A program made the translations under genes and the position numbers. A DNA stretch of 64,000 bases from a bacterium (GTDB taxonomy: Bacteria; UBA8248; JACPRG01; G963555815): assembly GCA_963555815.3 (NCBI GenBank), contig CAUVWX020000002.1, positions 544,001-608,000 on the forward strand. Direction: 5' to 3'. A model generated the notes under the pieces. That model saw only the letters and a list, made by a program, of their open reading frames with translations. It was not told the DNA's origin and did not search any database. This document shows positions 39,353 through 56,436 of this stretch, piece after piece. Within the stretch, counting starts at the first letter, position 1, and each line of letters starts with the position of its first letter.

Positions 39353-40864
39353 ATGCGGGAGCAGGTTTACATCTTCGACACCACCCTTCGGGACGGAGAG
39401 CAGTCTCCCGGGGCCAGCATGGATGCCCAGGAGAAGCTCGATCTCGCTCTTCAGCTCGAAAGGCTCAAGGTGGATGTCATCGAGGCTGGCTTTCCCATCG
39501 CCTCTCAGGGAGAGTTTGAGGCCGTCCGCGAGGTCGCCCGGCATGTCAAGGACTGCCAAGTGGCGGGTCTGACCCGGACCCGGCGGGCGGAGATCGACCG
39601 GACCTGGGAAGCCCTAAAGGAGGCCGAGGCCCCCCGCATTCACACTTTTATCGCCACTTCGGACATTCACCTCCACCATAAGCTCCGGATGACTCGAGAG
39701 CAGGTTCTCTCCGAGGCCGTCGAGGCTGTCCGGCACGCCAGGAAATACTGTGAAAATGTGGAGTTCTCCCCGGAGGATGCCTCACGGACCAATGTGGACT
39801 TCCTCTGCGAAGTCATCCGGGCGACGATTGAGGCTGGGGCCAAGACCATCAACGTCCCAGACACAACAGGTTACGCGATCCCCGAGGAAACGGCCCAAAT
39901 GTGGCATTCCATCTTCGAGCGAGTGCCGATCCACGAAGGGGTTGTCTTCAGCACCCACTGCCATGACGACCTCGGCCTTGCCGTCGCCAACAGCCTTGCA
40001 GCCATCCAGGCGGGGGTCAGGCAGGTGGAATGCACAGTGAACGGGATTGGCGAGCGGGCCGGAAACGCCTCCCTGGAGGAGGTGGCGATGGCCATCAAAA
40101 CCCGGGAGGACTTTCTACCCTTTTTCACCCGCATCAAGTCCGAGGAGATCTACCGAACGAGCCGGCTTCTCAGTAGCCTGACCGGCCTCGCCATCCCCAG
40201 ACACAAGGCCATCGTCGGAAAGAACGCCTTCGCCCACGAGGCAGGCATCCACCAGCATGGGGTCATTCAGAAGGCCCTCACCTACGAGATCATGAGGCCC
40301 GAGTGGGTCGGGCGAAGTGACAGCACCCTGGTCCTCGGAAAACACTCCGGGCGCCATGGCCTTCGCAAACGATACAGTGAACTGGGGCATGAGCTCACAG
40401 AAGAGCAGCTGAACGAAATCTACCCCCGGTTTCTGAGGGTGGCCGACAAGAAGAAGGAGGTCTATGACGATGACCTCCTCGCCATCCTGTCGGACGAGCT
40501 GAAAACCCACGCACAAAGATTCCAGTTGGAGTACCTCCACATCACCAGTGGGAGCCACGCCGTCCCGACCGCCACCGTGAAGCTGAGGGACGGGGAGCGT
40601 GTCCTCATGGAGACGGGAAACGGAGATGGGCCCGTGGAGGCCACCTTCAACGCCATCTCGAGCATCACTCAGCTCCCAGGCAAGCTCATGGACTACTCTG
40701 TCCATTCCGTCACCCGGGGAAAGGAAGCCCTCGGGGAGGTCTTCGTGAAGGTAGATTTTGGCGGAAAGGTGACGGGAGGAAAGGGGGCCAGCACGGACAT
40801 CATCGAGGCCAGCGCCAAGGCGTACCTCGATGCTCTCAACAAACACTTGGCAGGCGGTCGTTGA
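39353..40864 (+). CDS. leuA: 2-isopropylmalate synthase
   Basis: [33 protein letters not shown], regulatory domain GDGPV. Confidence 0.95.
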
Positions 40865-41016
40865 GAAAGCATGCGGCCCTAAAGCGGCGAACGAGACGGC
40901 CAGGAGCGGGCCCCCCCTCATCAAGGCGCGGCTCAGGCCCCGCGGCGCCCCCCCCCCCAGGAAGAGGCGTGTCTGGCTTGGAATTCCTGACATGACTCGC
41001 CTGGAACCGCGTCAGT

Positions 41017-41206
41017 TGTGGAAAAAAAGGGGTGGGGGTGAGAAAAAAGCCCTTCGGGAGGGTTGGAATTTTGCAACTATATGATTTTAAAAGCATTATT
41101 CCGTTGAACAAAAAATAGGCAATTCGGTTAAACTAAAGGAAAAATGAGGAGTTAGGAGCTATCGGGCCTAAGATTTCCGCAGGTTTTCCACAGGATCGGT
41201 GGAAAA
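41017..41206. promoter_or_regulatory. DnaA-box-like cluster with AT-rich tract and IHF-like site
   Basis: TGTGGAAAA (41017), ATTTCCGCA (41173), TTTTCCACA (41184), GGTGGAAAA (41198). AT-rich tract ~41065-41145. Reverse-strand AATCATATAGTTG at 41074-41086. Confidence 0.5.
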
Positions 41207-41210
41207 GAGC

Positions 41211-42350
41211 ATGCCCCTGAACGCAGACCGATTCAACGGTGCTCAGCCCGAGGAGCAGGCCCCGGAGCGGGTCGTCATCGCCATGAGTGGCGGTGTCGAT
41301 AGCTCGGTGGCAGCTGCCCTCCTCAAGCGGGAGGGAAGAGAGGTCATCGGAATCGGGATGCACCTTTGGAATTATGAAGAGGATCGCCTCGCCTTTGACT
41401 CCTGCTGCTCTCCCTACGATGTCCTGGATGCCAGGGCCGTGGCGGGGCGTCTGGGCATTCCTTACTATCTACAGAATTATGAAGAGAGTTTCCGAGAGGA
41501 GGTCGTCGGTTATTTCATCGGCGAATACCAGGCCGGAAGGACGCCCAATCCCTGCGTCGCCTGTAACCAGCGCTTCAAGTTCTCCCACCTGCTGAGACGG
41601 GCGAAGGAACTCGGGGCCGACCAGGTCGCCACGGGGCACTATGCCCGCGTCAAATGGCTTCCCAGGGAGGACCGCCCCGGTCTGGGGGGCCGGTTCGGCC
41701 TCTTTCGGGGCAAGGATCCAGTTAAGGATCAGAGTTATTTCCTCTTCAGTCTGAACCAGCCCCAGCTCGAAAGGGCCCTCTTTCCCGTAGGGGACCTCAC
41801 GAAGGAGGAGGTCAGGGAGCTTGGCCGGGAGCTTGGCCTGAAGACGGCCGAAAAGCCCGAGAGCCAGGATATCTGCTTTGTGGCCGGTGGAGACCATAGC
41901 CGCTTCATCGAGGAGCAGACAGGCGTGGCCTCGGCCCCCGGGCCCATTGTGGATCGGGCTGGCAGAACCCTTGGTCAACACCAGGGGCTCACCCACTACA
42001 CAGTGGGGCAGCGAAAGGGGCTTGGCGTCTCGGCGAAGGCACCCCTTTATGTCCTCGAGCTCGATGGAGCCCGAAATCAAGTCGTAGTCGGAGAAAAAGC
42101 AGACCTCGAGCGCTCGGTCTTCACTGTCCGGGGCGTCAACTGGATCGCACCTCCAGGTGAGGAGAGCGGAGGAACCCGCGCCTGGGTCCAGATCCGCCAC
42201 CACCACACCCCTCAGCCAGCCCAGCTCCTTCCCATTGCGGGAGGGCGAGTCCAGGTCGAGTTTGAGGCCCCTGAGCGGGGCATCGCCCCAGGCCAGGCCG
42301 CCGTCTTCTACCGGGAAGATGAGATATTGGGCGGGGGATGGATCGAATAA
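41211..42350 (+). CDS. mnmA: tRNA-specific 2-thiouridylase
   Basis: AMSGGVDS, TPNPCVACN, ATGHYA, KDQSYFL, ESQDICF, PGQAAVFY. Confidence 0.97.
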   Translation: MPLNADRFNGAQPEEQAPERVVIAMSGGVDSSVAAALLKREGREVIGIGMHLWNYEEDRLAFDSCCSPYDVLDARAVAGRLGIPYYLQNYEESFREEVVGYFIGEYQAGRTPNPCVACNQRFKFSHLLRRAKELGADQVATGHYARVKWLPREDRPGLGGRFGLFRGKDPVKDQSYFLFSLNQPQLERALFPVGDLTKEEVRELGRELGLKTAEKPESQDICFVAGGDHSRFIEEQTGVASAPGPIVDRAGRTLGQHQGLTHYTVGQRKGLGVSAKAPLYVLELDGARNQVVVGEKADLERSVFTVRGVNWIAPPGEESGGTRAWVQIRHHHTPQPAQLLPIAGGRVQVEFEAPERGIAPGQAAVFYREDEILGGGWIE

Positions 42351-42453
42351 AAGGGAAAAGAGACCCCAATAACGACTTTCTGAAACCCCTCGGTCAATTC
42401 CTCGTCTTAGCCCCGTCGAATCCTCAATCTCTTTAATCCACGCAAACTGGACC

Positions 42454-43308
42454 CTAGCGGCTGAGATTTTGGAGGAATCTCTCAGCGTCAGTCGCCTGGG
42501 TGCTTTCGATTCGACGATAGATCTCAAGGGCTTCTATCGCATACAGGATGGCTTGGTCTCTTGAGCCCAGGGCTTTGGCGAGGACGGCAAGGCTGAAGAG
42601 CGTCTCTGCAGCGCCGGGCTCGTCGCCAATCCTCCTTCGAATCTCCAGGCTTTCCCCGTAGAGCCTTTCGGCTTCGTCATAGCGCCCCAGATCCTTCGCA
42701 AGAGTGCTGAGGCCCATGAGGGTCGTCGCAACGCCGGACTCGTCGCCAATCCTCCTTGCGATCTGGATGCTCTGCTGGTAGAAGTCTTCGGCCTCGCCGT
42801 AGTGCACAAGTTTCCAAGCGATTATCCCGAGGCTGTTCAACCTTCTAGCGACGGCCGGTTCGTTGCCAAGTCTCCTCTCAATCGTCAGGCTCTCCTGGTA
42901 AAGCACCCTGGCCTCGAAATAGTTCCCCAGATTCTCGGCGGCAGCGCCTAACTGATTTAGGGCTGCGCTTCTCCCTCTCCCATCTCCCTTCTCCGTGACA
43001 AGGGAAAGGGCGCGTCGTCCCACCTCTTCGGCCTCTTCCCACCTCCCGTGCTTCCCCAGGGCTTCTCCAAGCCCTTGCCAGGCCTCGACAAGGTCCGGAT
43101 CAAGGTCTAGGGCCTGCCTGTAGAGGGAGATGGCCTCATCCCAGCGGTGGCGGCCATGCGCCTCGCGCGCCTTCGTTAGGAGGACACTCTTCTCTTCGTC
43201 AGAGAAGGAAAGGCGAAACCCATCGGGGAGCTCTCCCAACCGGCCCCCTTCAACAGGGAGCGTAGGGAGCGTCAGAAAGAGACTGAGAAAGAAAACGAAA
43301 AGGGGCAT
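42454..43308 (-). CDS. Exported tetratricopeptide repeat protein
   Basis: Hydrophobic N-terminus and 40-aa TPR-type repeats (A..LN.LG...Y.EA...Y.ESL.I.RR.GDE). Confidence 0.85.
   Translation of the reverse strand: MPLFVFFLSLFLTLPTLPVEGGRLGELPDGFRLSFSDEEKSVLLTKAREAHGRHRWDEAISLYRQALDLDPDLVEAWQGLGEALGKHGRWEEAEEVGRRALSLVTEKGDGRGRSAALNQLGAAAENLGNYFEARVLYQESLTIERRLGNEPAVARRLNSLGIIAWKLVHYGEAEDFYQQSIQIARRIGDESGVATTLMGLSTLAKDLGRYDEAERLYGESLEIRRRIGDEPGAAETLFSLAVLAKALGSRDQAILYAIEALEIYRRIESTQATDAERFLQNLSR
42599..42674 (-). repeat. 76-bp block shared (74/76) in inverted orientation with 48979-49054
   Basis: Direct comparison of the two TPR genes shows two mismatches. Confidence 0.85.
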
Positions 43309-43352
43309 GGGACCCCACCCTTATAGGAGAGAACCCTGAATCTTGGGGGACA

Positions 43353-43694
43353 TCACCCGGGGGGCCAGCGAAATCCCCGGCCGCCGAGGAGGTGAAGGTG
43401 GATGTGGAAGACAGATTGCCCCGCCCCCCGGTTACAATTCAGGACAAGGCGAAAGCCGGCCTCAAGCCCCCTCTCCCGGGCGATATCAGTGGCCTTGAGG
43501 TGGAGGGAGCCGAGGAGCTCCGCGTCCTCCTTCTTCGTGTCCAGAAGGGTTGAGATGTGCTTTCTTGGAATGAGGAGGACATGGGTTGGAGCCTGGGGGT
43601 TGATGTCCTCGATGGCGATGAGCTTTTCGTCCTCATACACCTTGGTCGCGGGGACCTTGCCTGCAATCACATCGCAGAAGAGACAGTCGGCCAT
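43353..43694 (-). CDS. hinT: HIT family nucleotide-binding protein
   Basis: CLFC, DINPQAPTH, GQSVFHIHLHLLGGR, C-terminal WPPG. Confidence 0.93.
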   Translation of the reverse strand: MADCLFCDVIAGKVPATKVYEDEKLIAIEDINPQAPTHVLLIPRKHISTLLDTKKEDAELLGSLHLKATDIARERGLEAGFRLVLNCNRGAGQSVFHIHLHLLGGRGFRWPPG

Positions 43695-43793
43695 GCGCCT
43701 CCCCATTCTCGAAACAGATCGCGCCTAAGGACCCCCCCTACGGCAACATCCCCCTCACCAGCTTTTCAGGGGGTAGCCCTATCTTGGAGGGCC

Positions 43794-45128
43794 TCAGGCC
43801 TTGGCGAAAAATTCCCGGGTCCCCTGGGCCTCGATGGCCTCCGCCAGACGCCGAAGGGCCAAGATATAAGCCGCCGTCCGGTTGTCCGTGGAATACTCCT
43901 TGGCCACACTGAGCAGCTCACGGAACTCCGTCACCATGATGGTCTTAAGCCGGCTGTGCACCTCTTCCAGCGTCCAATAGAACCCGGCCCGGTTCTGAAC
44001 CCACTCAAAATAGCTGACCGTCACACCCCCCGCGTTGGCCAGAATGTCGGGGATGAGAAAGACGCGGTGCTTCATGATGGCGCTCGCCTCTGAGGTAATC
44101 GGACCGTTGGCGAGCTCCACCATGTAACGGGCCTTCACCCTCGGCGCGTTCTCAGCCGTAATCACATTCTCCAGGGCGGAGGGAATGAGAATATCCACGT
44201 CCAGCTCCAAAAGCTCCTCGTTGGTGATCCGGTCGTGGGGGACCTCCTCAAATTCGCCGTTGCGCCGACTCACCCCGGCCACTCTCCCCTCCACGTCCTT
44301 GTGGGCCTTCACCGCCTCCGGATCAAAACCCTCCGGACGATAAATGCCCCCCTTGGAGTCACTCAAGCCCACAATCCGATAACCGTCCTGGGCAAGAAGC
44401 TGGGCCGCAAAATAACCCGCGTTCCCATAGCCCTGAATGGCCACCGTCGTCTTCTCGGGCTTCAGCCCAAACTCCTTCGCCATGACCTGGATGGTGTAAT
44501 AGCCTCCCCGGGCCGTCGCGTCCTCGCGGCCCAGACTCCCACCCAAAGAAACGGGCTTGCCGGTAATCGTCGCAGGGGTCTTCATCCGACGAATCAGACT
44601 GTACTCGTCGGCCATCCAAGCCATGATGGTGGGGTTGGTGTAAACGTCAGGAGCAGGAATATCAATGTCAGGGCCAATAAACTCCGCAATGGCGTCTATG
44701 TACCCCCGACTTAATCGTTCCAGCTCCGCATGAGAAAGCTCTCTCGGGTCGACCGCCACACCCCCCTTCGCCCCACCGAAGGGAATGTTCACCAACGCAC
44801 ACTTGAACGTCATCCAAAAGGCAAGGGCCGTCACCTCGTCTTGATCCACATCCGGATGAAACCGAATCCCCCCCTTTCCAGGACCCCGGGCGTCGTTATA
44901 ACGAACCCGATACCCCTGAAAAAGACGGAGGGAACCGTCGTCCATCCGAACCGGAATCGAAACCTGAAGGGAAAGCCTTGGATGACGAAGGGTCTCCTCG
45001 ACCTCTTCACTCAGAGGAAAAAACTCAAGCGCCCGGTCCAAGCGCCGCGTGGCGTCTTTAAAGGAACCCCCTTTTGCGGCTGTAGACTCCATCTTCAAAA
45101 CCGCAGAAGGCGTCTTACTCTCACTCAT
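43794..45128 (-). CDS. gdhA: Glu/Leu/Phe/Val dehydrogenase (glutamate dehydrogenase)
   Basis: GPGKGGIRF, PFGGAKGG, DIPAPDV, IQGYGNAG, ELANGP, NAGGVTVSYFEW. Confidence 0.9.
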   Translation of the reverse strand: MSESKTPSAVLKMESTAAKGGSFKDATRRLDRALEFFPLSEEVEETLRHPRLSLQVSIPVRMDDGSLRLFQGYRVRYNDARGPGKGGIRFHPDVDQDEVTALAFWMTFKCALVNIPFGGAKGGVAVDPRELSHAELERLSRGYIDAIAEFIGPDIDIPAPDVYTNPTIMAWMADEYSLIRRMKTPATITGKPVSLGGSLGREDATARGGYYTIQVMAKEFGLKPEKTTVAIQGYGNAGYFAAQLLAQDGYRIVGLSDSKGGIYRPEGFDPEAVKAHKDVEGRVAGVSRRNGEFEEVPHDRITNEELLELDVDILIPSALENVITAENAPRVKARYMVELANGPITSEASAIMKHRVFLIPDILANAGGVTVSYFEWVQNRAGFYWTLEEVHSRLKTIMVTEFRELLSVAKEYSTDNRTAAYILALRRLAEAIEAQGTREFFAKA

Positions 45129-45217
45129 GACATGCTCCTCGTAACCTCAGGAGTCAAACAGGGAGGGGGGGGCCATCCCCCCTCCTGAAAAGCTCCTAAA
45201 AATCGAATAAACGTACC

Positions 45218-45246
45218 AGTATAGCCCCCTTCCAAAAACCCTGCAA
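45218..45246 (-). promoter_or_regulatory. Sigma70-type promoter of gdhA
   Basis: Minus strand TTGCAG-17 nt-TATACT. Confidence 0.55.
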
Positions 45247-45278
45247 CGGACAAGGACAACCCTGAGAAACAGGGCCCC

Positions 45279-46466
45279 TCAGCGCTGGGTCACGAGGTAT
45301 TCCGCCGCCCGAAGGGCTGCCTTGGCCCCCTCCCCTGCGGCCACGAGGATCTGTTTGTCCCTCACGTTGGTCACGTCGCCTGCGGCGAAGACCCCCGGGA
45401 CGCCTGTGTTCGTATCGCAGTCAATGAGGATCTCGCCAATTGGATTCGTCTTAAGGGCGTCCAGGGCGAAGCCCGAATTCGGCAGCAGACCGACCTCGAC
45501 AAAGACCCCCCGGACCGAAAGGGTCTTCTCCTCCCACGAACTTTTAGAGCGGACGCGGACCCCCTCCACCTCGTCCTTCCCCAGGATCTCAAGGGTCTCA
45601 TGTCCTGTGAGCTGTTCCATGCGCTTCGTCTGCCTCAGCTTGTTCACGAGAACGTCGTCACCCGTGTAGTCCCCGACGACGATGAGGTAAACCTTTTTGG
45701 CCATGCGGTCGAGCTCCAGGGCCGCCTCTATAGCCGAGTTCCCACCCCCCACAACGGCCACATCAAGGCCTTTGTAAAAGGGGGCGTCGCACGTGGCGCA
45801 AAAGGCCACCCCCTTTCCCATGAGCCGCTCCTCGCCCGGAACCCCTATGCAACGCGGGCGTTTTCCCGAAGCGATGATGAGGGAACGACCCTGATACTCA
45901 TGGCCCGTCTGCGTGCAAACGCGCTTTATCTTGGGGAGTGCCTCCAGGCGGACGACGTTCGCCCCGATGATGCGGTCCATCTCGAACTGCTTTACGTGCT
46001 CGTCGAATTTGTCGATGAGGCTCTGGGCCTCGATGTAGTGGAAGCCCAGGTAGTTTTCGAGTTCAGCCGTGATGTTCAGCTGGCCCCCCACGTCCTTTCC
46101 TAGAACAAGGCATTTCAAGCCCTTCCGGCTGGCGTAAACGGCGGCCGTCATCCCGGCGGGGCCGGCCCCGATGATGATGACGTCATAGAGGGTTTTTAGG
46201 TCCGCCCGCTTCACAAGACCCAGCTTCTCATCGAGGACGCCCGTGGCGTTGAGGGCAGCAAGCTCGTCGTAACCCCCAATGACCTCCTCATCAATGAGGA
46301 TCTGGGGGGTGGTCCGCCCCCTTGTCCGCTCGATCATGGTGTCCCAGCCAGGGGTCCCGCCAAGGACCTCGATCTCCTCCGCCGTCACTTCCTTCTCCTT
46401 GAGCAGCGCCCGCGCTCGATCGCACCAGGGTCAGCCAGGTTGGGAATACATGAGGACTTTCGCCAT
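45279..46466 (-). CDS. Selenoprotein: glutaredoxin (UPWC) fused to TrxB/AhpF-type FAD disulfide reductase, 395 aa, Sec12
   Basis: RBS AGGAGG and ATG at 46466 give MAKVLMYSQPG-TGA(46431-46433)-PWCDRAR, in frame with ORF 45279-46388. Grx motifs TTPQILID and IGGYDEL; reductase motifs GAGPAG, CATCD, GGGNSA, AAGD. Confidence 0.9.
46397..46430 (-). promoter_or_regulatory. Putative bacterial SECIS element
   Basis: AGCG-CGGG-CGCT hairpin (alternative GAGC/GCTC pairing) with loop starting ~19 nt after UGA. Confidence 0.6.
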
Positions 46467-46640
46467 GAGGACCTCCTTTCGGTGGATGAGAGAAACGTGA
46501 TGGGGGATGGATCATCGGCCAGGGAAAGGGATTTAGACCCCTCCCGATTTTCGAAACTCCCCCTCCTCCCCCTTATAATGAAAAGAGATTGAAGAAACCA
46601 TTATAATTAGGGCAAAAATGCCACCGGAGAGAAGGCCATT

Positions 46641-47633
46641 CTGAGACCGCCACAATTCCGCCAAGCCAGGGTCATCCGGGGGTTCTTCTGGGGCCTTCTG
46701 CTGACGGGTGCTTTCGGATGCGCCCAAGGTTCCCATTCGAAACACCCAGGACAGGAACCCCCCCCCCTTCTCGACACGGTGAGGCTCCTTGAGGGACGCA
46801 CCGACCAGGAGAGATTGCTCGCCGTCGAGGAGATCTTGCAAGGAAAGGGGGTCCCTTTTGAGAGACGACCTTATCTGGTCTCGGGCGAGGAGAGGCAAAA
46901 CCTCCTTTGGGAGGTTCACCCGGGCCACGAGATCCTCATCCTCTCGGCCCACTATGACGCCGCAAGGGGCTCTCCTGGGGCAAATGACAACGCCTCCTGC
47001 GTTTCGGTCCTCCTTGAGGCGGGAGAGCGCCTCGCCCGGGAGCACCTTGGCCCCCTGGGCCTTCGAATTCTCTTCTTCGGAGATGAAGAGGGAGGGCTCC
47101 TCGGGAGCCAGGCCTACGTTGCGGGGGAAGACCTCAGGGAGGTCATCGGCGTCCTGAACCTCGAGCTTTGTGGGATAGGGGATATGGCAGGGCTCTGGGA
47201 TGTCCGGAACGACGACCGGGGCTCCCTTCTCTTTCGCTCCCTCGTTGCCGCCTTTGAACGGGAGGACATCCCCTTTGGGGTCGTCCCGAGGCTCCGGAGG
47301 TTTTCCAGCGACCACCGGAGCTTTTGGAGACGGGGGATACCCGGCTTCGCCCTGACGGTGGTCCCGGAAAAGGAGGAGGCACTTCTTCGAGCTTACGTGG
47401 AGGACCCCGGGGCAGAAAGGTGGCGGGATCCTTCCTCCCGGCCCACTCCCTTTCAGACCTATCACTCGGCCGGGGATCTTGCCGACACCCTCAGTGAGGG
47501 GGCTCTTCGATTGATGGCCGGGGCCGTTGTGGAAGGCGTCCTCGAGCTCTCGAGGAAGCTCAGGCCGACGAGCCCGGATGGGGAGGCGTCCATCGAGGAT
47601 TTTTATAAGACCGAAGTCTCTTTGGTGGAATAA
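46641..47633 (+). CDS. M28 family peptidase, probable lipoprotein (start uncertain)
   Basis: SAHYD, PGANDNAS, DEEGGLLGS, LNLE, SDH, YHS..D motifs. The frame extends upstream of GTG 46779 through RVIRGFFWGLLLTGAFG-C. Confidence 0.8.
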   Translation: MRPPQFRQARVIRGFFWGLLLTGAFGCAQGSHSKHPGQEPPPLLDTVRLLEGRTDQERLLAVEEILQGKGVPFERRPYLVSGEERQNLLWEVHPGHEILILSAHYDAARGSPGANDNASCVSVLLEAGERLAREHLGPLGLRILFFGDEEGGLLGSQAYVAGEDLREVIGVLNLELCGIGDMAGLWDVRNDDRGSLLFRSLVAAFEREDIPFGVVPRLRRFSSDHRSFWRRGIPGFALTVVPEKEEALLRAYVEDPGAERWRDPSSRPTPFQTYHSAGDLADTLSEGALRLMAGAVVEGVLELSRKLRPTSPDGEASIEDFYKTEVSLVE

Positions 47634-47674
47634 CGCTGCAGGGCACCCCTGAGGCCCGAAAGGGGTGAGGGGAA

Positions 47675-48373
47675 ATGGCTGTCGAGCGAAATCACTATCA
47701 GAGAATCCCCCCAGGGCCTCTGTTTGGCTTATGGTCCTGGCGCTATCTCGACCTCCTGAAGATGATCCGTCTCAGGCTGAACCCGCGGATCCATGGCTTC
47801 TATACAAAGTTTCCCACCATTCCCCCCCCCGGCTCCAAATTCCCCGAGGTCGACCTGGAGACGGTGGACGGAGGGAGAATCAACACAAAAGCGCTTCAAG
47901 GGAGGAGGCACTTCGTCCTCCTCACCGGGGCCCTCACCTGACCTCCGACCCGGAGGCAGTTGCCTCTCATGGAGGAGCTGGCAAGAAAGTATAAGGACCG
48001 GGGTGTGGAGGTCTTCCTCATGTACGTCCGGGAGCCCCATGCGAAAGAGCGGGGCTTTCGCCAGTACCGAAAACATGAGAGTTACGACCACAAGATGGAG
48101 TACGCAAAGCTCCTGGTGAAAAAGCACAGCCTCGTCATCCCCTGTCTTGTGGACAGCCTTGATGAAAAGTTGCACCAGATTCTTGGAAACCTTCCAAATC
48201 TTGTTTATGTGGTGGATAAGAAAGGGGAGGTCTTCTACAAAAACACCTGGACAGACGCAGACGCCATTGACGAGATCCTGGCTGAGCTGGTGACGGCGGA
48301 AGACCCATCGCGCCCCGTCCAAAAGACGATGGACAGTCGCCACGTGCCGGGCCGGATCCCCGTTGAGGTGTAG
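47675..48373 (+). CDS. Selenoprotein: iodothyronine deiodinase-like thioredoxin-fold protein, 232 aa, Sec89
   Basis: ORFs 47675-47941 and 47960-48373 are one frame separated only by TGA at 47939-47941: FVLLTGALT-U-PPTRRQLP...YKDRGVEVFLMYVREPH...DSLD...GNLPNLVYVV. Confidence 0.88.
47942..47975 (+). promoter_or_regulatory. Putative bacterial SECIS element
   Basis: Lower stem CCTCC/GGAGG, upper stem GAGGC-AGTT-GCCTC, loop at +17 to +20 from UGA. Confidence 0.7.
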
Positions 48374-48512
48374 GTCCGGGATGAGCGGCCCTCCCACACC
48401 ATCCGGCCCCAGAAAGTTCTTGTCTGAATGTTCTCTTGGATAGTACTATTTAGCCCTTGATAGGGATCCAGTGAAAGGGGCACAACCGACCCCTCTTTTC
48501 GGGAGAACACCC

Positions 48513-49688
48513 ATGATCCTCGCCAGGATATCTCTTCTCGCCCTCTTTTTCCCTCTTCTCCTCGTCCTCCCAGCCGAGGGGGTTCGGCAGGTCTCTGCTG
48601 TCTTTCTTAAGAACCAAGCCGGGCCTGAAAGCGGTGCGCGGGACCATCGGAAAGGGCTCGACCCGGAGCTTCTTTCCTTCTTTGGCCCCTCTGATGAAGA
48701 GAAGAATGCCATCCTAACGAAGGCGCACGAGGCTCATAACAGTCAGCTTTGGGATGAGGCCGTCTCTCTCTACCGCCAGGTCATTGCCCTCGACTCGGAC
48801 GACGCCGAGGCCTGGCAAGGGCTTGGGATCGCACTTCAACACCAGGAAATATGGGGCGAGGCACAGGACGCTGGGAAGCAGGCCCTTTCCATTTTCACGG
48901 AGCGCGGAGACGAGAAGGGGAGAGGGGAGGTCCTCTACAACCTCGGCAACATCTCTGAGGACCGCGGGCACCATGACCAAGCCGAAAGGCTCTACGGGGA
49001 AAGCCTGGAGATTCAAAGGAGGATTGGCGACGAGCCCGGCGCCGCAGAGACGCTGAACAACCTGGGAATTCTCGCTGGGATCCAGGAGCGCTATGTCGAG
49101 GCCGAGACGCTCTTCCAGGAGAGGCTGGAGATCCAGAGGAAACTCGGCGACGAGGCCGGCATCTCAGAGACGCTGTACAACCTGGGAGTGGTCGCCGAGA
49201 GGGAAGCACGCTACGACAAGGCCAAAGAGCTCTACCATGAGGGCCTGGAGATTGAAAGGAAGCTTGGCGATGAGGCCGGCTTGGCGACGACGCTGAATAA
49301 CCTCGGCGATGTTGCCGCGAGACAAGAACAGTACGAAGAGGCCAATGGGTTCTTTCAGGAGAGCCTGGAGATTCAAAGGAAACTGGGAGATGAGTCGGGG
49401 CTCGTCGTGACGCTGTTCAACCTGGGAGTGGTGGCCGAGAACCGCGAGCAGAGCGGAGAGGCCATGGGGTTGTACCAGGAGGCCTTAGAGATCGGCAGGA
49501 AGCTCAACGATGAACCCCTCGTCGGGCAGACTCTATTCTCCCTCGCCCTCCTCGCTGAGGCTGAGGGCTCAAGGGACGAGGCCGTCGAATACGCAAAAGA
49601 GGCCCATGAGATATTCGGCAAGATAAAGAGCCCATTGGAAGTGAGAACCCGAAACTTCCTGCGAATCCTGGGATGGCCCGTTCCGTAG
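48513..49688 (+). CDS. Exported tetratricopeptide repeat protein (paralog of 42454-43308)
   Basis: Signal peptide MILARISLLALFFPLLLVLPAEG, shared SDEEK..LTKA.EAH...WDEA.SLYRQ segment, 40-aa TPR repeats. Confidence 0.85.
   Translation: MILARISLLALFFPLLLVLPAEGVRQVSAVFLKNQAGPESGARDHRKGLDPELLSFFGPSDEEKNAILTKAHEAHNSQLWDEAVSLYRQVIALDSDDAEAWQGLGIALQHQEIWGEAQDAGKQALSIFTERGDEKGRGEVLYNLGNISEDRGHHDQAERLYGESLEIQRRIGDEPGAAETLNNLGILAGIQERYVEAETLFQERLEIQRKLGDEAGISETLYNLGVVAEREARYDKAKELYHEGLEIERKLGDEAGLATTLNNLGDVAARQEQYEEANGFFQESLEIQRKLGDESGLVVTLFNLGVVAENREQSGEAMGLYQEALEIGRKLNDEPLVGQTLFSLALLAEAEGSRDEAVEYAKEAHEIFGKIKSPLEVRTRNFLRILGWPVP
48979..49054 (+). repeat. 76-bp block shared (74/76) in inverted orientation with 42599-42674
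   Basis: Direct sequence comparison. Confidence 0.85.
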
Positions 49689-49719
49689 GTCTTCATTCGT
49701 CCAGATCGAGGCCAGCACG

Positions 49720-50493
49720 TCACCGCGCCGCCCGTTTTGCCTCCTCCCAAAGGGCGTCAAGCGTCGCCCCATCCACCTGCGAGGGGGTGAGACCTCTTGT
49801 CGACAGAGAGGACTCGATATACCGAAAGCGTTCCATGAACTTTGAGGTGGAAAGCCGGAGGGAGGCCTCGGCGTCGATGCCAAGGTGACGGGCCGCGCTC
49901 ACCAGGGCAAAGAGGAGGTCCCCAAACTCCCGCTCCGTCTTTTCCTGATCCCCAGATTGTCTCGCCTGATCGAGCTCACCAAGCTCCTCCCGGACTTTCT
50001 CAAGGGCCCCTTCCGCCGCCTCCCAATCCAGCCCCACGCGCCCCACCTTGGTCTGAACCCGCTGGGCCTTCAAGAGGGCTGGAAGGGTGGTGGGGACCCC
50101 GTCCAGGACCGACCGTCCCCCCCCTTCGCTCTGTTTGATGGCCTCCCAATTTTTGAGGACTTCCTCCGGCGTCTCTGCCAGGACATCCCCGAAGACGTGG
50201 GGGTGCCTCCTGACCAGCTTCTCATGGACCTCCCGGATGACCTCCCAAACGGTATAGCGGCCTTCCTCAGCGGCGATCTGGGCGTGAAAGACGATCTGGA
50301 GGAGGAGATCCCCTAATTCCTCCCTCACCTTTTCGTCCGCCCCCGCCTCGATCGCCTCGATCACCTCGTAGGCCTCCTCAATGAGATAGGGTTTTAGGGA
50401 ATCGGGCGTCTGCTCCCGGTCCCAAGGACACCCCCCTTCCCCCCTCAGGCGGGCCATAATCTGAACCAGGTCTTCAAAGGATCGCTCAGGCAT
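49720..50493 (-). CDS. mazG: Nucleoside triphosphate pyrophosphohydrolase
   Basis: GCPWDREQT, EEAYE, EELGDLLLQ, RRHPHVF, EFGDLLF. Confidence 0.95.
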   Translation of the reverse strand: MPERSFEDLVQIMARLRGEGGCPWDREQTPDSLKPYLIEEAYEVIEAIEAGADEKVREELGDLLLQIVFHAQIAAEEGRYTVWEVIREVHEKLVRRHPHVFGDVLAETPEEVLKNWEAIKQSEGGGRSVLDGVPTTLPALLKAQRVQTKVGRVGLDWEAAEGALEKVREELGELDQARQSGDQEKTEREFGDLLFALVSAARHLGIDAEASLRLSTSKFMERFRYIESSLSTRGLTPSQVDGATLDALWEEAKRAAR

Positions 50494-50738
50494 TTTTTCG
50501 TCTTACTTTCGTGAAACAGAGAAGTATATTGCCACTAAACAGAAGGGTCCTCCTTATTATAGATACGCGGCGAGGCCTCGCAAGGGGAAAAGTGCCCCTC
50601 CCCTAAAACCCGACATTTTGTAGTGGCAGAAGAAAAAAACACCAGGGGTAGTATCTTTTCTCTTGACAGGCCCTTTTCCTCGGGAGTAAAGAAGGGACAC
50701 TTTCCATCTTGTCTGAAAAGCCATCTTCGGAGAAACTC

Positions 50739-52501
50739 ATGGAGCCGAAGATCCAGGTTCTTCCTCCTATCCTGGCCGACCAAATTGCGGCGGGGGAGGT
50801 TATCGAGCGCCCGTCCTCGGTCGTGAAGGAGCTCCTTGAGAACGCTCTGGACGCCGGGGCCAGGTCCATTGAAGTCCAGATCAAAGGGGCCGGTCGGGGT
50901 CTCATCCGGGTCCTCGATGATGGGGAGGGGATGAGTCCTGAGGACGCAAGGCGGGCCTTTCTTCGCCACGCGACCAGCAAGATCGAACGTGCGGAGGATC
51001 TCAGGGCCATCCGAACGCTCGGCTTTCGGGGTGAGGCCCTGCCGAGCATCGCCGCCGTATCCCGAGTCACACTCATCACGCGCCCAAGGGGAGGAGGTCC
51101 CGAGGGGACGCGCGTCCTGATCGAAGGCGGCAAGGTGAGAGACGTCTCACCGGCTCCGTCTCCTGAGGGGACGTCCATTGAGGTTCGGGATCTTTTCTTC
51201 AATACGCCGGCGCGTCTTAAATTTTTAAAAAGCCCGGGGACCGAAATCTCCCGGATCGTCGAGGCAACCTCTCAGGCGGCCCTCTCAGCCCCCGGCCTTC
51301 GCCTGAAGCTGACCCATGAGGGACGGGCCCTCCTCGACCTTCCCCCCGCGAGGGACCGGGGGGAGAGAGTCCGAAGGCTCCTCGCAGGAACAGAAGCAAA
51401 GGAGCTTTTTTCCCTCCCTCTCTTTGAGGAAGGGCCCAGTGGAATCAGGGTCGAGGGCTTTTGTTCGCCCCCTCCCCTAACCCGGGCTTCCAGGTCTTGC
51501 CAGCACGTCCTCGTCAACGGCCGCTACGTCAGGGACCGGATCATCCTGAACGCCCTCTCCGAGGCCTATCGAAACCTTTTGCCCGCCGGAAGGCATCCCC
51601 TTGCTTTCCTCTTCATCGAGATGGCGCCAGACGCACTCGATGTGAACGTCCATCCGGCAAAGGCCGAGGTGCGCTTTCAAGATGGGAGACAAGTGTTCTC
51701 GGCGGTGAGGAAGGGAGTCCTGGAGGGCCTGGTCCGGGCCGGGGCCTCCCCCGCCCTCGAGACGCCAAAGGGGCCCGCTTATTCTATGAAGGGCCATAGA
51801 ATGCCCGCGCCGTCTCCTGCGAGATGGTCTCTTCCCGTCCGCTCTCTGGGAAAGGTGGTGGCGCTGGCGCCAAAGGAGGCGCCTGATGAGCCCCTCCCCC
51901 TCCTTGCACCTGGGACACCAAAGAACCTCCTCTCGGAGGGCCGCGTCCTGGGCCAGCTCCACGCCACCTACATTCTCTTGGAGCACGCCCGCGGGATGAT
52001 GCTTGTGGATCAGCACGCGGCCCATGAGCGGCTCCTCTTTGCCCGTCTGAAGGACAGGATTGAAAAAGGGAAGGTCGAAGGCCAGGGCCTCCTCCTCTCC
52101 CTCCCCATTGATTTCTCTCCGGAAGATGCCGAGGTCCTCTCCGAGCGCCTGGAGGATCTCAAAACCCTGGGATTTCATCTCGAACCCTTTGGGCCAAGGA
52201 GCTTCCTTCTGAGAGAGGTTCCCGCCCTTCTCGCCCACGAGGACCCGGAGGAGCTTCTCAGGGAACTCCTGGCCGGCCTGAAGGAGGGGAGGGACAAAAA
52301 ACTCTCCGAGCTCGGGGAGGGCCTGCTTGAGCAGATGGCCTGCCGGGGAGCCCTCAAGGCGGGAAAGACTCTTAACCGTGAGGAGATGGAGCACCTCATC
52401 TCTGAGTGCCTCGAGCTCGATCTCCTCTTTGCCTGCCCTCATGGGCGGCCCATCACCCTTCTTCTCCCAAAGGAAGAAGTAGAGCGGAGATTTTTGAGGC
52501 G

Positions 52502-52505
<4 letters not shown>
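50739..52505 (+). CDS. mutL: DNA mismatch repair protein MutL, endonuclease type
   Basis: IAAGEVIERP, GFRGEAL, DVNVHPAK; C-terminal DQHAAHER, ACR and CPHGRP. Confidence 0.96.
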
Positions 52506-54821
<2,316 letters not shown>

Positions 54822-54870
54822 GATCCATTTAGGCCGGGCCTCGCGCCCTTTACGTATGAAAAGAGGGAAG

Positions 54871-56436
54871 ATGGCCTCGAAGGTCCTCATCCTCGATTTT
54901 GGCTCTCAGTACACCCAGCTCATCGCCAGGCGGGTGAGAGAGCAAAAAGTCTACTGCGAGATCATGCCCTGCACGGTGTCTCTCGAAAAGATCCGGGCCT
55001 TTGAGCCGGGGGGCCTCATCCTTTCAGGGGGTCCCTGGAGCGTCTATGGGTCAGACGCCCCCAAAGTCCCGAAGGCCGTGCTGGAGCTCGGGGTCCCGGT
55101 CCTTGGGATCTGCTACGGCCTCCAGTTCATGGCCCACCATCTGGGCGGAAAGGTCCGCCCACAGGCGAGACGGGAGTATGGACACGCGGGGCTCGAGATA
55201 CTGGACTCCTCAGACCTCTTCCAGGGCTTTGCGGGCGAGATCCCCGTCTGGATGAGCCACGGGGACGCCATCGAGGAGTGTCCGCCCGGGTTTCAGTCCA
55301 TCGGGCGGACCGAGAACTCCCCCGTGGCCGCGATGAGGAACGGGAGCCGAAAACTCTTTGGCATCCAGTTCCACCCCGAGGTGGTCCATACGCCAAAAGG
55401 CCGGGAGGTGCTGAGGAATTTCCTGTTTGGGATCTGCGGCGTCGCCCCTGAGTGGACCATGGCTTCCTTCATCGATACCTCTGTCCGAACCATCCGCGAA
55501 CAGGTCGGGGAGGAGGGGGTACTGCTCGGGCTTTCAGGGGGCGTCGATAGCGCTGTCGCCGCGGCCCTTCTCCAGCGTGCCATTGGGGATCAGCTGACCT
55601 GCATCTTTGTGGACAACGGCCTCCTACGAAAGGGGGAGGCACAAGAAGTGCTGGAGTTCTTCCAAGACCACATGAGGCTTCGGCTTCGCTTTCGGGAAGC
55701 CGGCCTGGAATTTTTAACGGCCCTTCGGGGAGTGACCGACCCCGAGGAGAAGCGACGGAGAATCGGTCGGCTCTTTATCAAAATATTCGAAATGGAGGCC
55801 GAGGGTGCCGAGCGCGAAAGCGCAAGAAGGCCCTGCCCTGCGCCGTTCACCTACCTATCCCAGGGGACCCTCTACCCCGACGTCATTGAGAGCGTCTCCT
55901 TCAAAGGTCCCTCGGCCACCATCAAAACGCACCACAACGTGGGAGGGCTCCCGGAGAACATGAATCTGAAACTCCTGGAGCCCCTTCGAGAACTCTTCAA
56001 GGATGAGGTGAGGAAGCTCGGCCAAGAGCTGGGGCTCCCCAGAGAGGTCCTCATCCGGCATCCCTTCCCGGGCCCAGGGCTCGCCGTGCGCATCCCCGGG
56101 GAGGTGACGGAGGGGGCCCTCCAGATCCTCCGCGAGGCGGACGCCATCTTCATGGAGGAGATAAAACGGGCGGGTCTCTACGAAGAGATCTGGCAGGCCT
56201 TCGCCGTCCTCCTTCCCGTCCGGACGGTCGGCGTCATGGGGGACCAACGGACCTATGAGCACGCCGTCGCCCTCCGGGCCGTAACGAGCCAAGACGGCAT
56301 GACGGCCGACTGGGTGAAACTCCCCGGGGACCTCCTGGGGGTCATCTCGGCCCGCATCATCAACGAGGTGAAAGGCGTGAATCGGGTTGTCTATGATATC
56401 TCCTCAAAACCCCCCGCCACGATTGAGTGGGAGTGA
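54871..56436 (+). CDS. guaA: GMP synthase
   Basis: [36 protein letters not shown]. Confidence 0.97.

Follow-up and report, generated by a model that had tools for sequence, protein, structure and literature searches.

A deiodinase-like gene with an in-frame TGA, probably read as selenocysteine, in a UBA8248 bacterium

Is the TGA that interrupts a deiodinase-like reading frame in this genome a stop or a selenocysteine codon, and what might the full-length protein do? The locus lies in a window of 64,000 nucleotides, by which we mean the whole stretch of DNA that was analysed. Translation with table 11 splits the frame into an 88-aa and a 137-aa ORF, which the first-pass annotation had read as a single frame interrupted solely by one TGA. 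That reading is correct: the codon context is G-A-L-T-U-P-P-T, and Y-V-R-E-P-H stands at residues 117-122 of the 232-codon frame. The gene and its immediate signals are as follows.

47675 to 48373, plus strand: predicted deiodinase-like selenoprotein gene, 232 codons, from the ATG at 47675 to the TAG at 48373, with one internal stop
47939 to 47941, plus strand: in-frame TGA, codon 89, inferred from the homologue alignment to be selenocysteine at the catalytic position
47660 to 47672, plus strand: purine-rich, Shine-Dalgarno-like stretch 5′ of the start codon, seen in the sequence, its function inferred

GGAG-type stretches precede the matching ATG in homologues too. Strains in two other runs carry an in-frame 6-nt insertion at 47708, in the N-terminus of the gene.

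Recoding of the in-frame TGA

A sequencing or assembly error at the TGA was considered and rejected. Contigs from three sequencing runs (contigs, not raw reads) cross the locus with no difference listed at 47939-47941. The contig of run X4 is identical and possibly the source, and those of runs X6 and X7, from other studies, have 9 and 11 differing letters elsewhere. Because the contigs of all three runs show no change there, the TGA is not an assembly error. Homologues keep it as well, among them the copy in a genome of 91% identity and the paralogue (67% identical) in the window's own genome. RNA coverage consists of a single 202-nt contig from one run (depth 2.8), located 3′ of the UGA, which may be DNA carry-over. 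Small shares in other runs, one labelled sponge and one seawater, are not evidence of habitat.

The codon is conserved across the phylum. A six-frame search of 51 phylum genomes found 111 matches at E ≤ 1e-25, spread over 48 of the genomes; 109 matches span codon 89, and all 109 contain a TGA. In a set of distinct close homologues (37-100% identity), made up of part of the phylum matches together with metagenome loci, the TGA falls exactly at the Sec column in 69/69, the sole other codon being a TGT in a distant relative at 29% identity. A profile search of 1.84 billion representatives returned 1,742 matches at 1e-10. Wider homologues have Cys at this column in 122 of the 135 with a residue there (best 150 of 15,793), so that the pattern of Sec or Cys at residue 89, which the first-pass annotation had named as the one to look for, is what the alignment gives. 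No Cys form of the clade itself was found among the best 120 of 142 matches or the best 150 of 15,793. Gly or Trp stands at the Sec column of two records that are complete or nearly so, on one contig each (best 120 of 142), and is likely due to an error or a TGA=Trp call.

Database copies of the gene are halves, with the N-terminal pieces from gene callers ending exactly at G-A-I-T. In a protein database search, 72 of 73 matches were 127-142 residues long and none covered >58% of the query. Being stored as halves, the clade is nearly invisible in these databases.

The genome of the window (2.08 Mb, 95.7% complete) has selA, selB, selC (tRNA-Sec) and selD, all over cut-off, and its selD itself carries a TGA. 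While selA was found in 49 of the 51 phylum genomes, one 99%-complete genome has selA yet no family member, so that Sec users do not all have the gene. Another sequence scoring above the tRNA-Sec cut-off (contig C1:678548-678636, 50.4 bits) was not called by ARAGORN and may mean nothing, since a tRNA-Leu also exceeds it. A screen of the genome gave 71 matches, most of them probably chance, including other candidate UGA redox genes. By eye these are AhpD-like (CxxU), TlpA-, DsbA-, ArsC- and rhodanese-like (C1:613365, 994249, 628154, 572890, 522249, 1028120, 712847; C2:610262, 498129).

A two-stem hairpin had been described after the TGA, and its two stems fared differently.

47952 to 47967, plus strand: SECIS upper stem-loop GGAGGC/AGTT/GCCTCT, loop at 47958-47961 with G second in the loop, supported by covariation
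47942 to 47975, plus strand: possible lower stem, 47942-47947 with 47970-47975, which can form in this gene and is not conserved

The upper hairpin, with a 4-nt A-G-U-U loop, 6 pairs, 16 nt between the UGA and the loop, and an energy of -8.7 to -9.3 kcal/mol, lies within the bSECIS model on all five counts. That model, as given in a recent review, calls for a loop of 3-9 nt, a stem of 4-16 bp, G in the first two loop positions, a spacing of 16-37 nt and an energy ≤ -7.5 (PMC13188914). Across 53 distinct homologous stretches, 84.9% of upper-stem cells were paired versus 74.6% after shuffling, and covariation scored 0.257 versus 0.083, with 0 of 500 shuffles as high, in a kind of test that kinship among stretches inflates. 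Two further measures on the same 53 stretches, based on counts of pairs or types, gave no excess over shuffles (138/500 and 217/500). Double-sided changes in the stem include A-U versus C-G and G-C versus C-G. A control in which the upper stem was slid by +1 scored 0.241, likely because one clade has a 7-pair stem with its register slipped by one base. The stem has at least 4 pairs in 58 of 64 distinct stretches and only 3 in the other 6, and the loop G is present in 63/64. When the gene's peptide was recoded with synonymous codons (n=200), an equally good hairpin arose in 3.5%. Codons within the hairpin are near-fixed (R as CGG in 57/66, Q as CAG in 65/66), compared with 26% and 76% elsewhere in the same genes.

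The lower stem, CCTCC/GGAGG, gives a nested fold of -17.6 kcal/mol in this gene, but it is complete in just 2 of 64 distinct homologous stretches, and longer sequence windows prefer folds other than the nested two-stem form. The upper stem is thus supported and the lower is not, and we rejected the latter as a conserved part of the SECIS. Also rejected was an alternative in-register stem (columns 4-9 with 13-18), paired in 69.2% of cells versus 68.6% after shuffling. Rfam gave no match within 40000-56000 of the window.

Together, the conserved TGA, the covarying upper stem and the sel machinery uphold the selenoprotein claim of the first pass, and from the sequence we consider it almost certain that TGA 47939-47941 is recoded to selenocysteine. 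That the TGA is a real stop, leaving two short genes or a pseudogene, is extremely improbable: databases contain only halves and a small number of copies are disrupted (by an insertion in G002, by loss of the 5′ half in G004 and by a frameshift in the second G001 copy), but the codon falls on the catalytic position in all 69 copies, conservation extends over both halves, which make up a single domain, and the gene has a covarying SECIS in a genome with the Sec machinery. The insertion that splits the G002 copy is ~1.4 kb long, and its ORFs look like transposase by eye.

A predicted soluble clade of the deiodinase-like family

The gene belongs to a kind known since 2005, when deiodinase-like selenoproteins of bacteria were described in both Sec and Cys forms (Zhang, Fomenko and Gladyshev 2005, PMC1088965), and it lies in a distinct clade, predicted to be soluble. 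The family was counted again in 2008, with no motif in the accessible text (PMC2398784), and stands as uncharacterised in a 2026 review (PMC13188914). These sources agree with the earlier statement that such proteins are known and their substrates not established (PMC1088965, PMC13188914). In a search of papers available without subscription, we found no description of this clade and no experimental work on a bacterial deiodinase homologue. 'deiodinase' and 'PF00837' had no match in one BSepDB supplement file (~4.0 million characters, probably incomplete), and the database may already include the clade. Of the ten BSepDB genomes richest in selenoproteins, three are from UBA8248 (PMC13326102).

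PF00837 (T4_deiodinase) scores 36.8 bits against a cut-off of 27, in agreement with the family assigned in the first pass. Redoxin scores slightly higher (41.9), PF00578 (AhpC-TSA) is also above its cut-off, and 45/45 aligned members match PF00837 at E ≤ 0.001. The family profile finds mouse Dio3 (9e-16) and Dio2 (1e-14) as its top two PDB matches, and the single sequence finds ResA as its best match in both the PDB and Foldseek. A structure model (mean pLDDT 90.5, pTM 0.90) aligns with mouse Dio3 (4tr4) at Z 16.0 and rmsd 2.8 over 164 residues, which ties with a TlpA-type protein (3gl3, Z 16.3, 137 aligned). The peroxiredoxins AhpE and Bcp1 reach Z 15.4 and 15.3. TlpA/ResA and BCP/AhpE proteins thus share the core fold at equal Z (14-16), along with the Redoxin and AhpC-TSA matches, but TlpA-type proteins and peroxiredoxins align over 135-150 residues versus 164 for Dio3.

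The protein consists of an N-terminal helical extension (residues 1-48), a thioredoxin/peroxiredoxin-type core (~49-209) and a C-terminal tail. The extension is predicted to form three helices; it begins with a conserved P-P-G-P...W-S, is positively charged overall and is barely probed by the fold searches. The core holds an insertion of the deiodinase type.

48023 to 48076, plus strand: deiodinase-type insertion, codons 117-134, from alignment to 4tr3 and 9h48

The likeness of GALT-U-PP and YVREPH to deiodinase motifs, noted in the first pass, was confirmed: U89 aligns with the Sec/Cys of mouse Dio3 and Dio2, and within the insertion Y117, E120, H122 and H134 correspond to Y197, E200, H202 and H219 of mouse Dio3, with F128 near W207. 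T88, Y117, H122 and H134 occur in 45/45 members and E120 in 44/45. The invariant or nearly invariant residues are G85, T88, U89, P91, R94, Q95, Y117, E120, H122, H134, D160, G171, P174, N175, Y188, K189 and W192. T88, Y117, E120, H122 and H134 match the proton relay or loop-anchor residues of the mammalian enzymes as described in two papers (PMC9141512, PMC7506546). There, T125, E156, H174 and Y153 of DIO1 (PMC9141512) and H202, E200 and H219 of Dio3 (PMC7506546) are shown or proposed to be necessary for deiodination, and one simulation study gives the relay network a structural role, that of anchoring the loop (PMC7506546). Of 135 wider prokaryotic homologues, mostly of the Cys type (best 150 of 15,793), 72 have the same T/Y/E/H/H set, so it marks the family and not a halogen substrate.

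Around the Sec, U-P-P-[Y/F/T/S] occurs in 64 of 66 clade sequences; a UxxC/CxxC active site was found in 0/66, and 37/66 have no cysteine anywhere. Position 87 is I/L/V, the residue at -3 is Ala in 43/45 and that at -7 is Leu; C157 is present in 4/45, and an L-P-N turn occupies the cis-Pro position. The 19-residue hydropathy maximum is 0.51 in the first 60 residues and 0.99 over the whole protein, and the N-terminal maximum of the clade is 1.18 versus 1.9-2.9 in membrane-anchored relatives. The protein is probably cytoplasmic.

The clade is present in 48/51 genomes of the phylum. In a midpoint-rooted tree of 74 core segments, built from bacterial sequences after 20 near-duplicate loci and broken copies were left out, 46 phylum rows and one outside row form the clade at 100/97, apart from the sampled UxxC and membrane-anchored bacterial types. 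The outside row (L105, genome G163) has the TGA and a similar hairpin, and may have been transferred or misbinned. The name Nitrospinota is attached to one genome of the same class and to two homologues. Several old subclades occur within the clade, at 1-4 copies per genome, a pattern that would fit substrate-specialised paralogues. The 2.08-Mb genome of the window keeps two copies. The second (C1:251076-251810, L060 7077-7811) is 67% identical, shares the TGA and the hairpin, has Ser at -3 and an insertion of 8 residues in the loop, and lies between hpnH and a TPR gene. No family member was found on viral contigs, and plasmids gave one distant Cys relative. Among 7,996 longer candidates, fusions were limited to two weak thioredoxin/TPR proteins.

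With the bacterial 'deiodinase-like protein' family (PF00837) the clade has in common the UGA at the catalytic site, a bacterial SECIS and the PF00837 score. It differs in lacking a Cys form among its best matches, in its P-P-G-P...W-S extension and in having several copies per genome. The family as tabulated in the 2026 review has UxxC (PMC13188914), which the clade lacks; UxxC does not define the family, since it marks one clade among several and the 2008 survey gives no motif. NF038285 ('deiodinase family protein') has a homologous core, but the window protein scores 74.5 bits and other clade members 73-108, against a cut-off of 250. The membrane-anchored, Acidobacteriota-type selenoproteins also share the homologous core and have UGA in most cases; they keep E-A-H-x-x-D-x-W, G-P-x-G and a mostly hydrophobic N-terminus, in all of which the clade differs.

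How close, then, is the protein to the animal enzymes? DIO1-3 and the clade have in common the fold, G-x-x-T-U-P-P, Y-x-x-E-x-H, a second His and V-D before the last helix pair. Unlike DIO1-3, the clade protein has no N-terminal transmembrane helix, no conserved distal Cys and (compared with DIO1/3) no proximal Cys, and has Ala in place of Ser at -3. In mouse Dio2, too, the proximal Cys is missing, and the enzyme shows activity with DTT (PMC11592359). The AHxxDGW loop of Dio3 is absent, replaced by a shorter loop with P-H-A-K-E-R-G-F, and R260 and the R275-G-P turn of the thyronine cleft are absent, with Y-K-x-x-W in place; structural identity to Dio3 is ~21%. Thyroid hormone is an unlikely substrate, judging from the missing membrane helix, resolving cysteines, DGW and Arg/G-P turn and the rarity of Ser at -3.

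Two claims of special resemblance to the animal enzymes did not hold. The upstream W-x4-LD-x2-K motif is ~19 residues out of register: in the profile alignment, D-F-F-K of mouse Dio3 lies 5 residues before the Gly matching G53, versus 24 for K29. The window protein is also less closely related to the animal enzymes than are some other bacterial selenoproteins, as judged by HMM scores: the membrane-anchored L118 scores 77.6 bits on Dio3, 74.2 on Dio2, 108 on PF00837 and 211 on NF038285, compared with 24.5 on Dio3 and 36.8 on PF00837 for the window protein. The anchored types are the more promising place to look for the nearest bacterial relatives of animal deiodinases. Several of them (L118, L120, L121, L123, L124, L131-L133) carry F-G-S-x-T-U-P-P-F, E-A-H-x-x-D-x-W and G-P-F-G, and 50 of 301 sampled genomes of their phylum match the profile (a count that includes the unpublished genome G075).

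Proposed activity and neighbouring genes

We tentatively propose, with a rough probability of 0.4, that the protein is a one-Sec reductase that uses deiodinase-type chemistry to take iodine or bromine off a small aromatic compound other than thyroid hormone. SelB on the hairpin 16 nt past the UGA would deliver Sec-tRNA, with incorporation almost certain, and the chain is predicted with high confidence to fold as the deiodinase variant of the thioredoxin fold. By analogy with the mammalian enzymes, the substrate would sit beneath the 117-134 loop, the U89 selenolate would attack its halogen, and the conserved T88-E120-H134, with Y117 and H122, would protonate the ring. The oxidised Sec would be re-reduced by an outside thiol system, an external reductant being needed because there is no second cysteine. 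Mammalian deiodinases need to form dimers (PMC11592359). Speculatively, the basic, aromatic N-terminal helices could take the place of the membrane helix and linker here, serving as a module for dimer formation or for contact with the membrane surface.

The argument for dehalogenation is indirect: it draws on the conserved relay residues and on the absence of both CxxC and the peroxiredoxin motifs. Against it, the relay set is family-wide, AHxxDGW, R260 and R275-G-P are absent, TlpA/ResA and peroxiredoxins tie structurally with Dio3, and the candidate reductant gene is adjacent in one genus. No recognised dehalogenase or halogenase was found among 40 representative neighbour proteins. Bmp8 is a bacterial debrominase; a literature search on it, among papers available without subscription, found nothing.

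45279 to 46466, minus strand: fusion of a glutaredoxin (U-P-W-C, TGA 46433-46431) and a thioredoxin-reductase/AhpF-like flavoprotein, a putative second hidden selenoprotein

This fusion gene is divergent, lies 1.2 kb from the deiodinase-like gene and is adjacent only in the window's genus. It has the TGA form in the window's genome and G005, and occurs as Cys-form long open frames in G001, G002 and G006; the hairpin screen of the window's genome did not list it. Its position weakly suggests a candidate reductant for the deiodinase-like selenoprotein. The more specific idea that the soluble Sec-only clade is a thiol-driven reductive dehalogenase of natural iodo- or bromo-aromatics, with the fusion as NADPH-linked reductant, is one we consider unlikely.

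A one-Sec peroxidase or oxidant scavenger (acting on hydroperoxides or hypohalous acids), recycled by glutaredoxin or a small thiol, is a close rival, somewhat less likely than the main proposal, with several points in its favor: the peroxiredoxin-like core with its AhpE and Bcp1 scores and PF00578 match, the many other candidate UGA redox genes in the genome, and the redox role suggested in the 2005 paper (PMC1088965). AhpD-like and glutaredoxin genes also flank a Cys relative, which favours a general redox role. That relative, a RefSeq 'deiodinase-like protein' on a Mycolicibacterium plasmid (NZ_CP126902.1, L104 5345-7315), lies between AhpD/CMD-family and glutaredoxin genes, behind a TetR regulator. 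Peroxiredoxins have the motif P-xxx-T/S-xx-C and a catalytic Arg. The clade has neither, with N175/L176 at what we take to be the Arg position, and its conserved His/Glu loop, extra to the peroxiredoxin fold, would be unnecessary for such chemistry. In the family profile search, moreover, Dio3 and Dio2 outrank every peroxiredoxin.

It is improbable that the protein is a monothiol-type disulfide reductase or thiol transferase acting on proteins or mixed disulfides, like a cytoplasmic TlpA/ResA. The ResA matches of the single sequence, the L-P-N turn and a DinB/thiol-transferase gene that follows one clade in one genus agree with this idea, but the CxxC of TlpA/ResA is missing in 66/66, the inserted His/Glu loop and the predicted N-terminal helices are absent from ResA, and the DinB adjacency is limited to one lineage.

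Equally improbable is a Sec-plus-relay site acting on another small electrophile (a sulfoxide, N-oxide or organometalloid) in a catabolic pathway with flavin oxidoreductases. In its favor, luciferase-like flavin oxidoreductase genes lie beside three paralogue clades (30 loci) without being orthologous across clades (0-36% identity), and one of the clades also has a flavin reductase. The association was picked after the fact and is weakened by abundance, since four relatives have 27-42 such genes per genome; the window's genome has one, far from both family copies.

Viewed as an annotation correction, the gene is ordinary; as an assay target it is useful. The protein should be easy to express and assay because it is small, lacks a membrane helix, has a high-confidence predicted fold and keeps the relay residues, and the clade is thus a convenient route to a question dating to 2005, the role of bacterial deiodinase-like proteins. 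If the dehalogenase reading is true, deiodinase chemistry exists outside animals and an enzyme class is added to halogen cycling; it would be the first activity for a bacterial deiodinase homologue that we found in print, and a selenium-based route of microbial dehalogenation. Peroxidase or disulfide activity would instead show what the fold did otherwise.

No operon around family genes is conserved across the phylum. Intact or broken copies lie inside a selA/selB/selD cluster in four family genomes (L098, L099, L077 and L078, in G001, G003, G002 and G004), adjoining selB/selA with selD nearby. The genes flanking the window's copy are as follows.

46779 to 47633, plus strand: M28 peptidase gene, 41 nt upstream, possibly co-transcribed
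48471 to 49688, plus strand: TPR-repeat gene, downstream; the C1 paralogue is also followed by a TPR gene

Beyond the window's genus, the M28 adjacency was seen on just one close metagenome contig. The downstream TPR gene is related to another at 42454-43308 (minus strand), with a similar N-terminus and within 6 kb, and strains in two other runs carry a 21-nt in-frame insertion in it at 48566.
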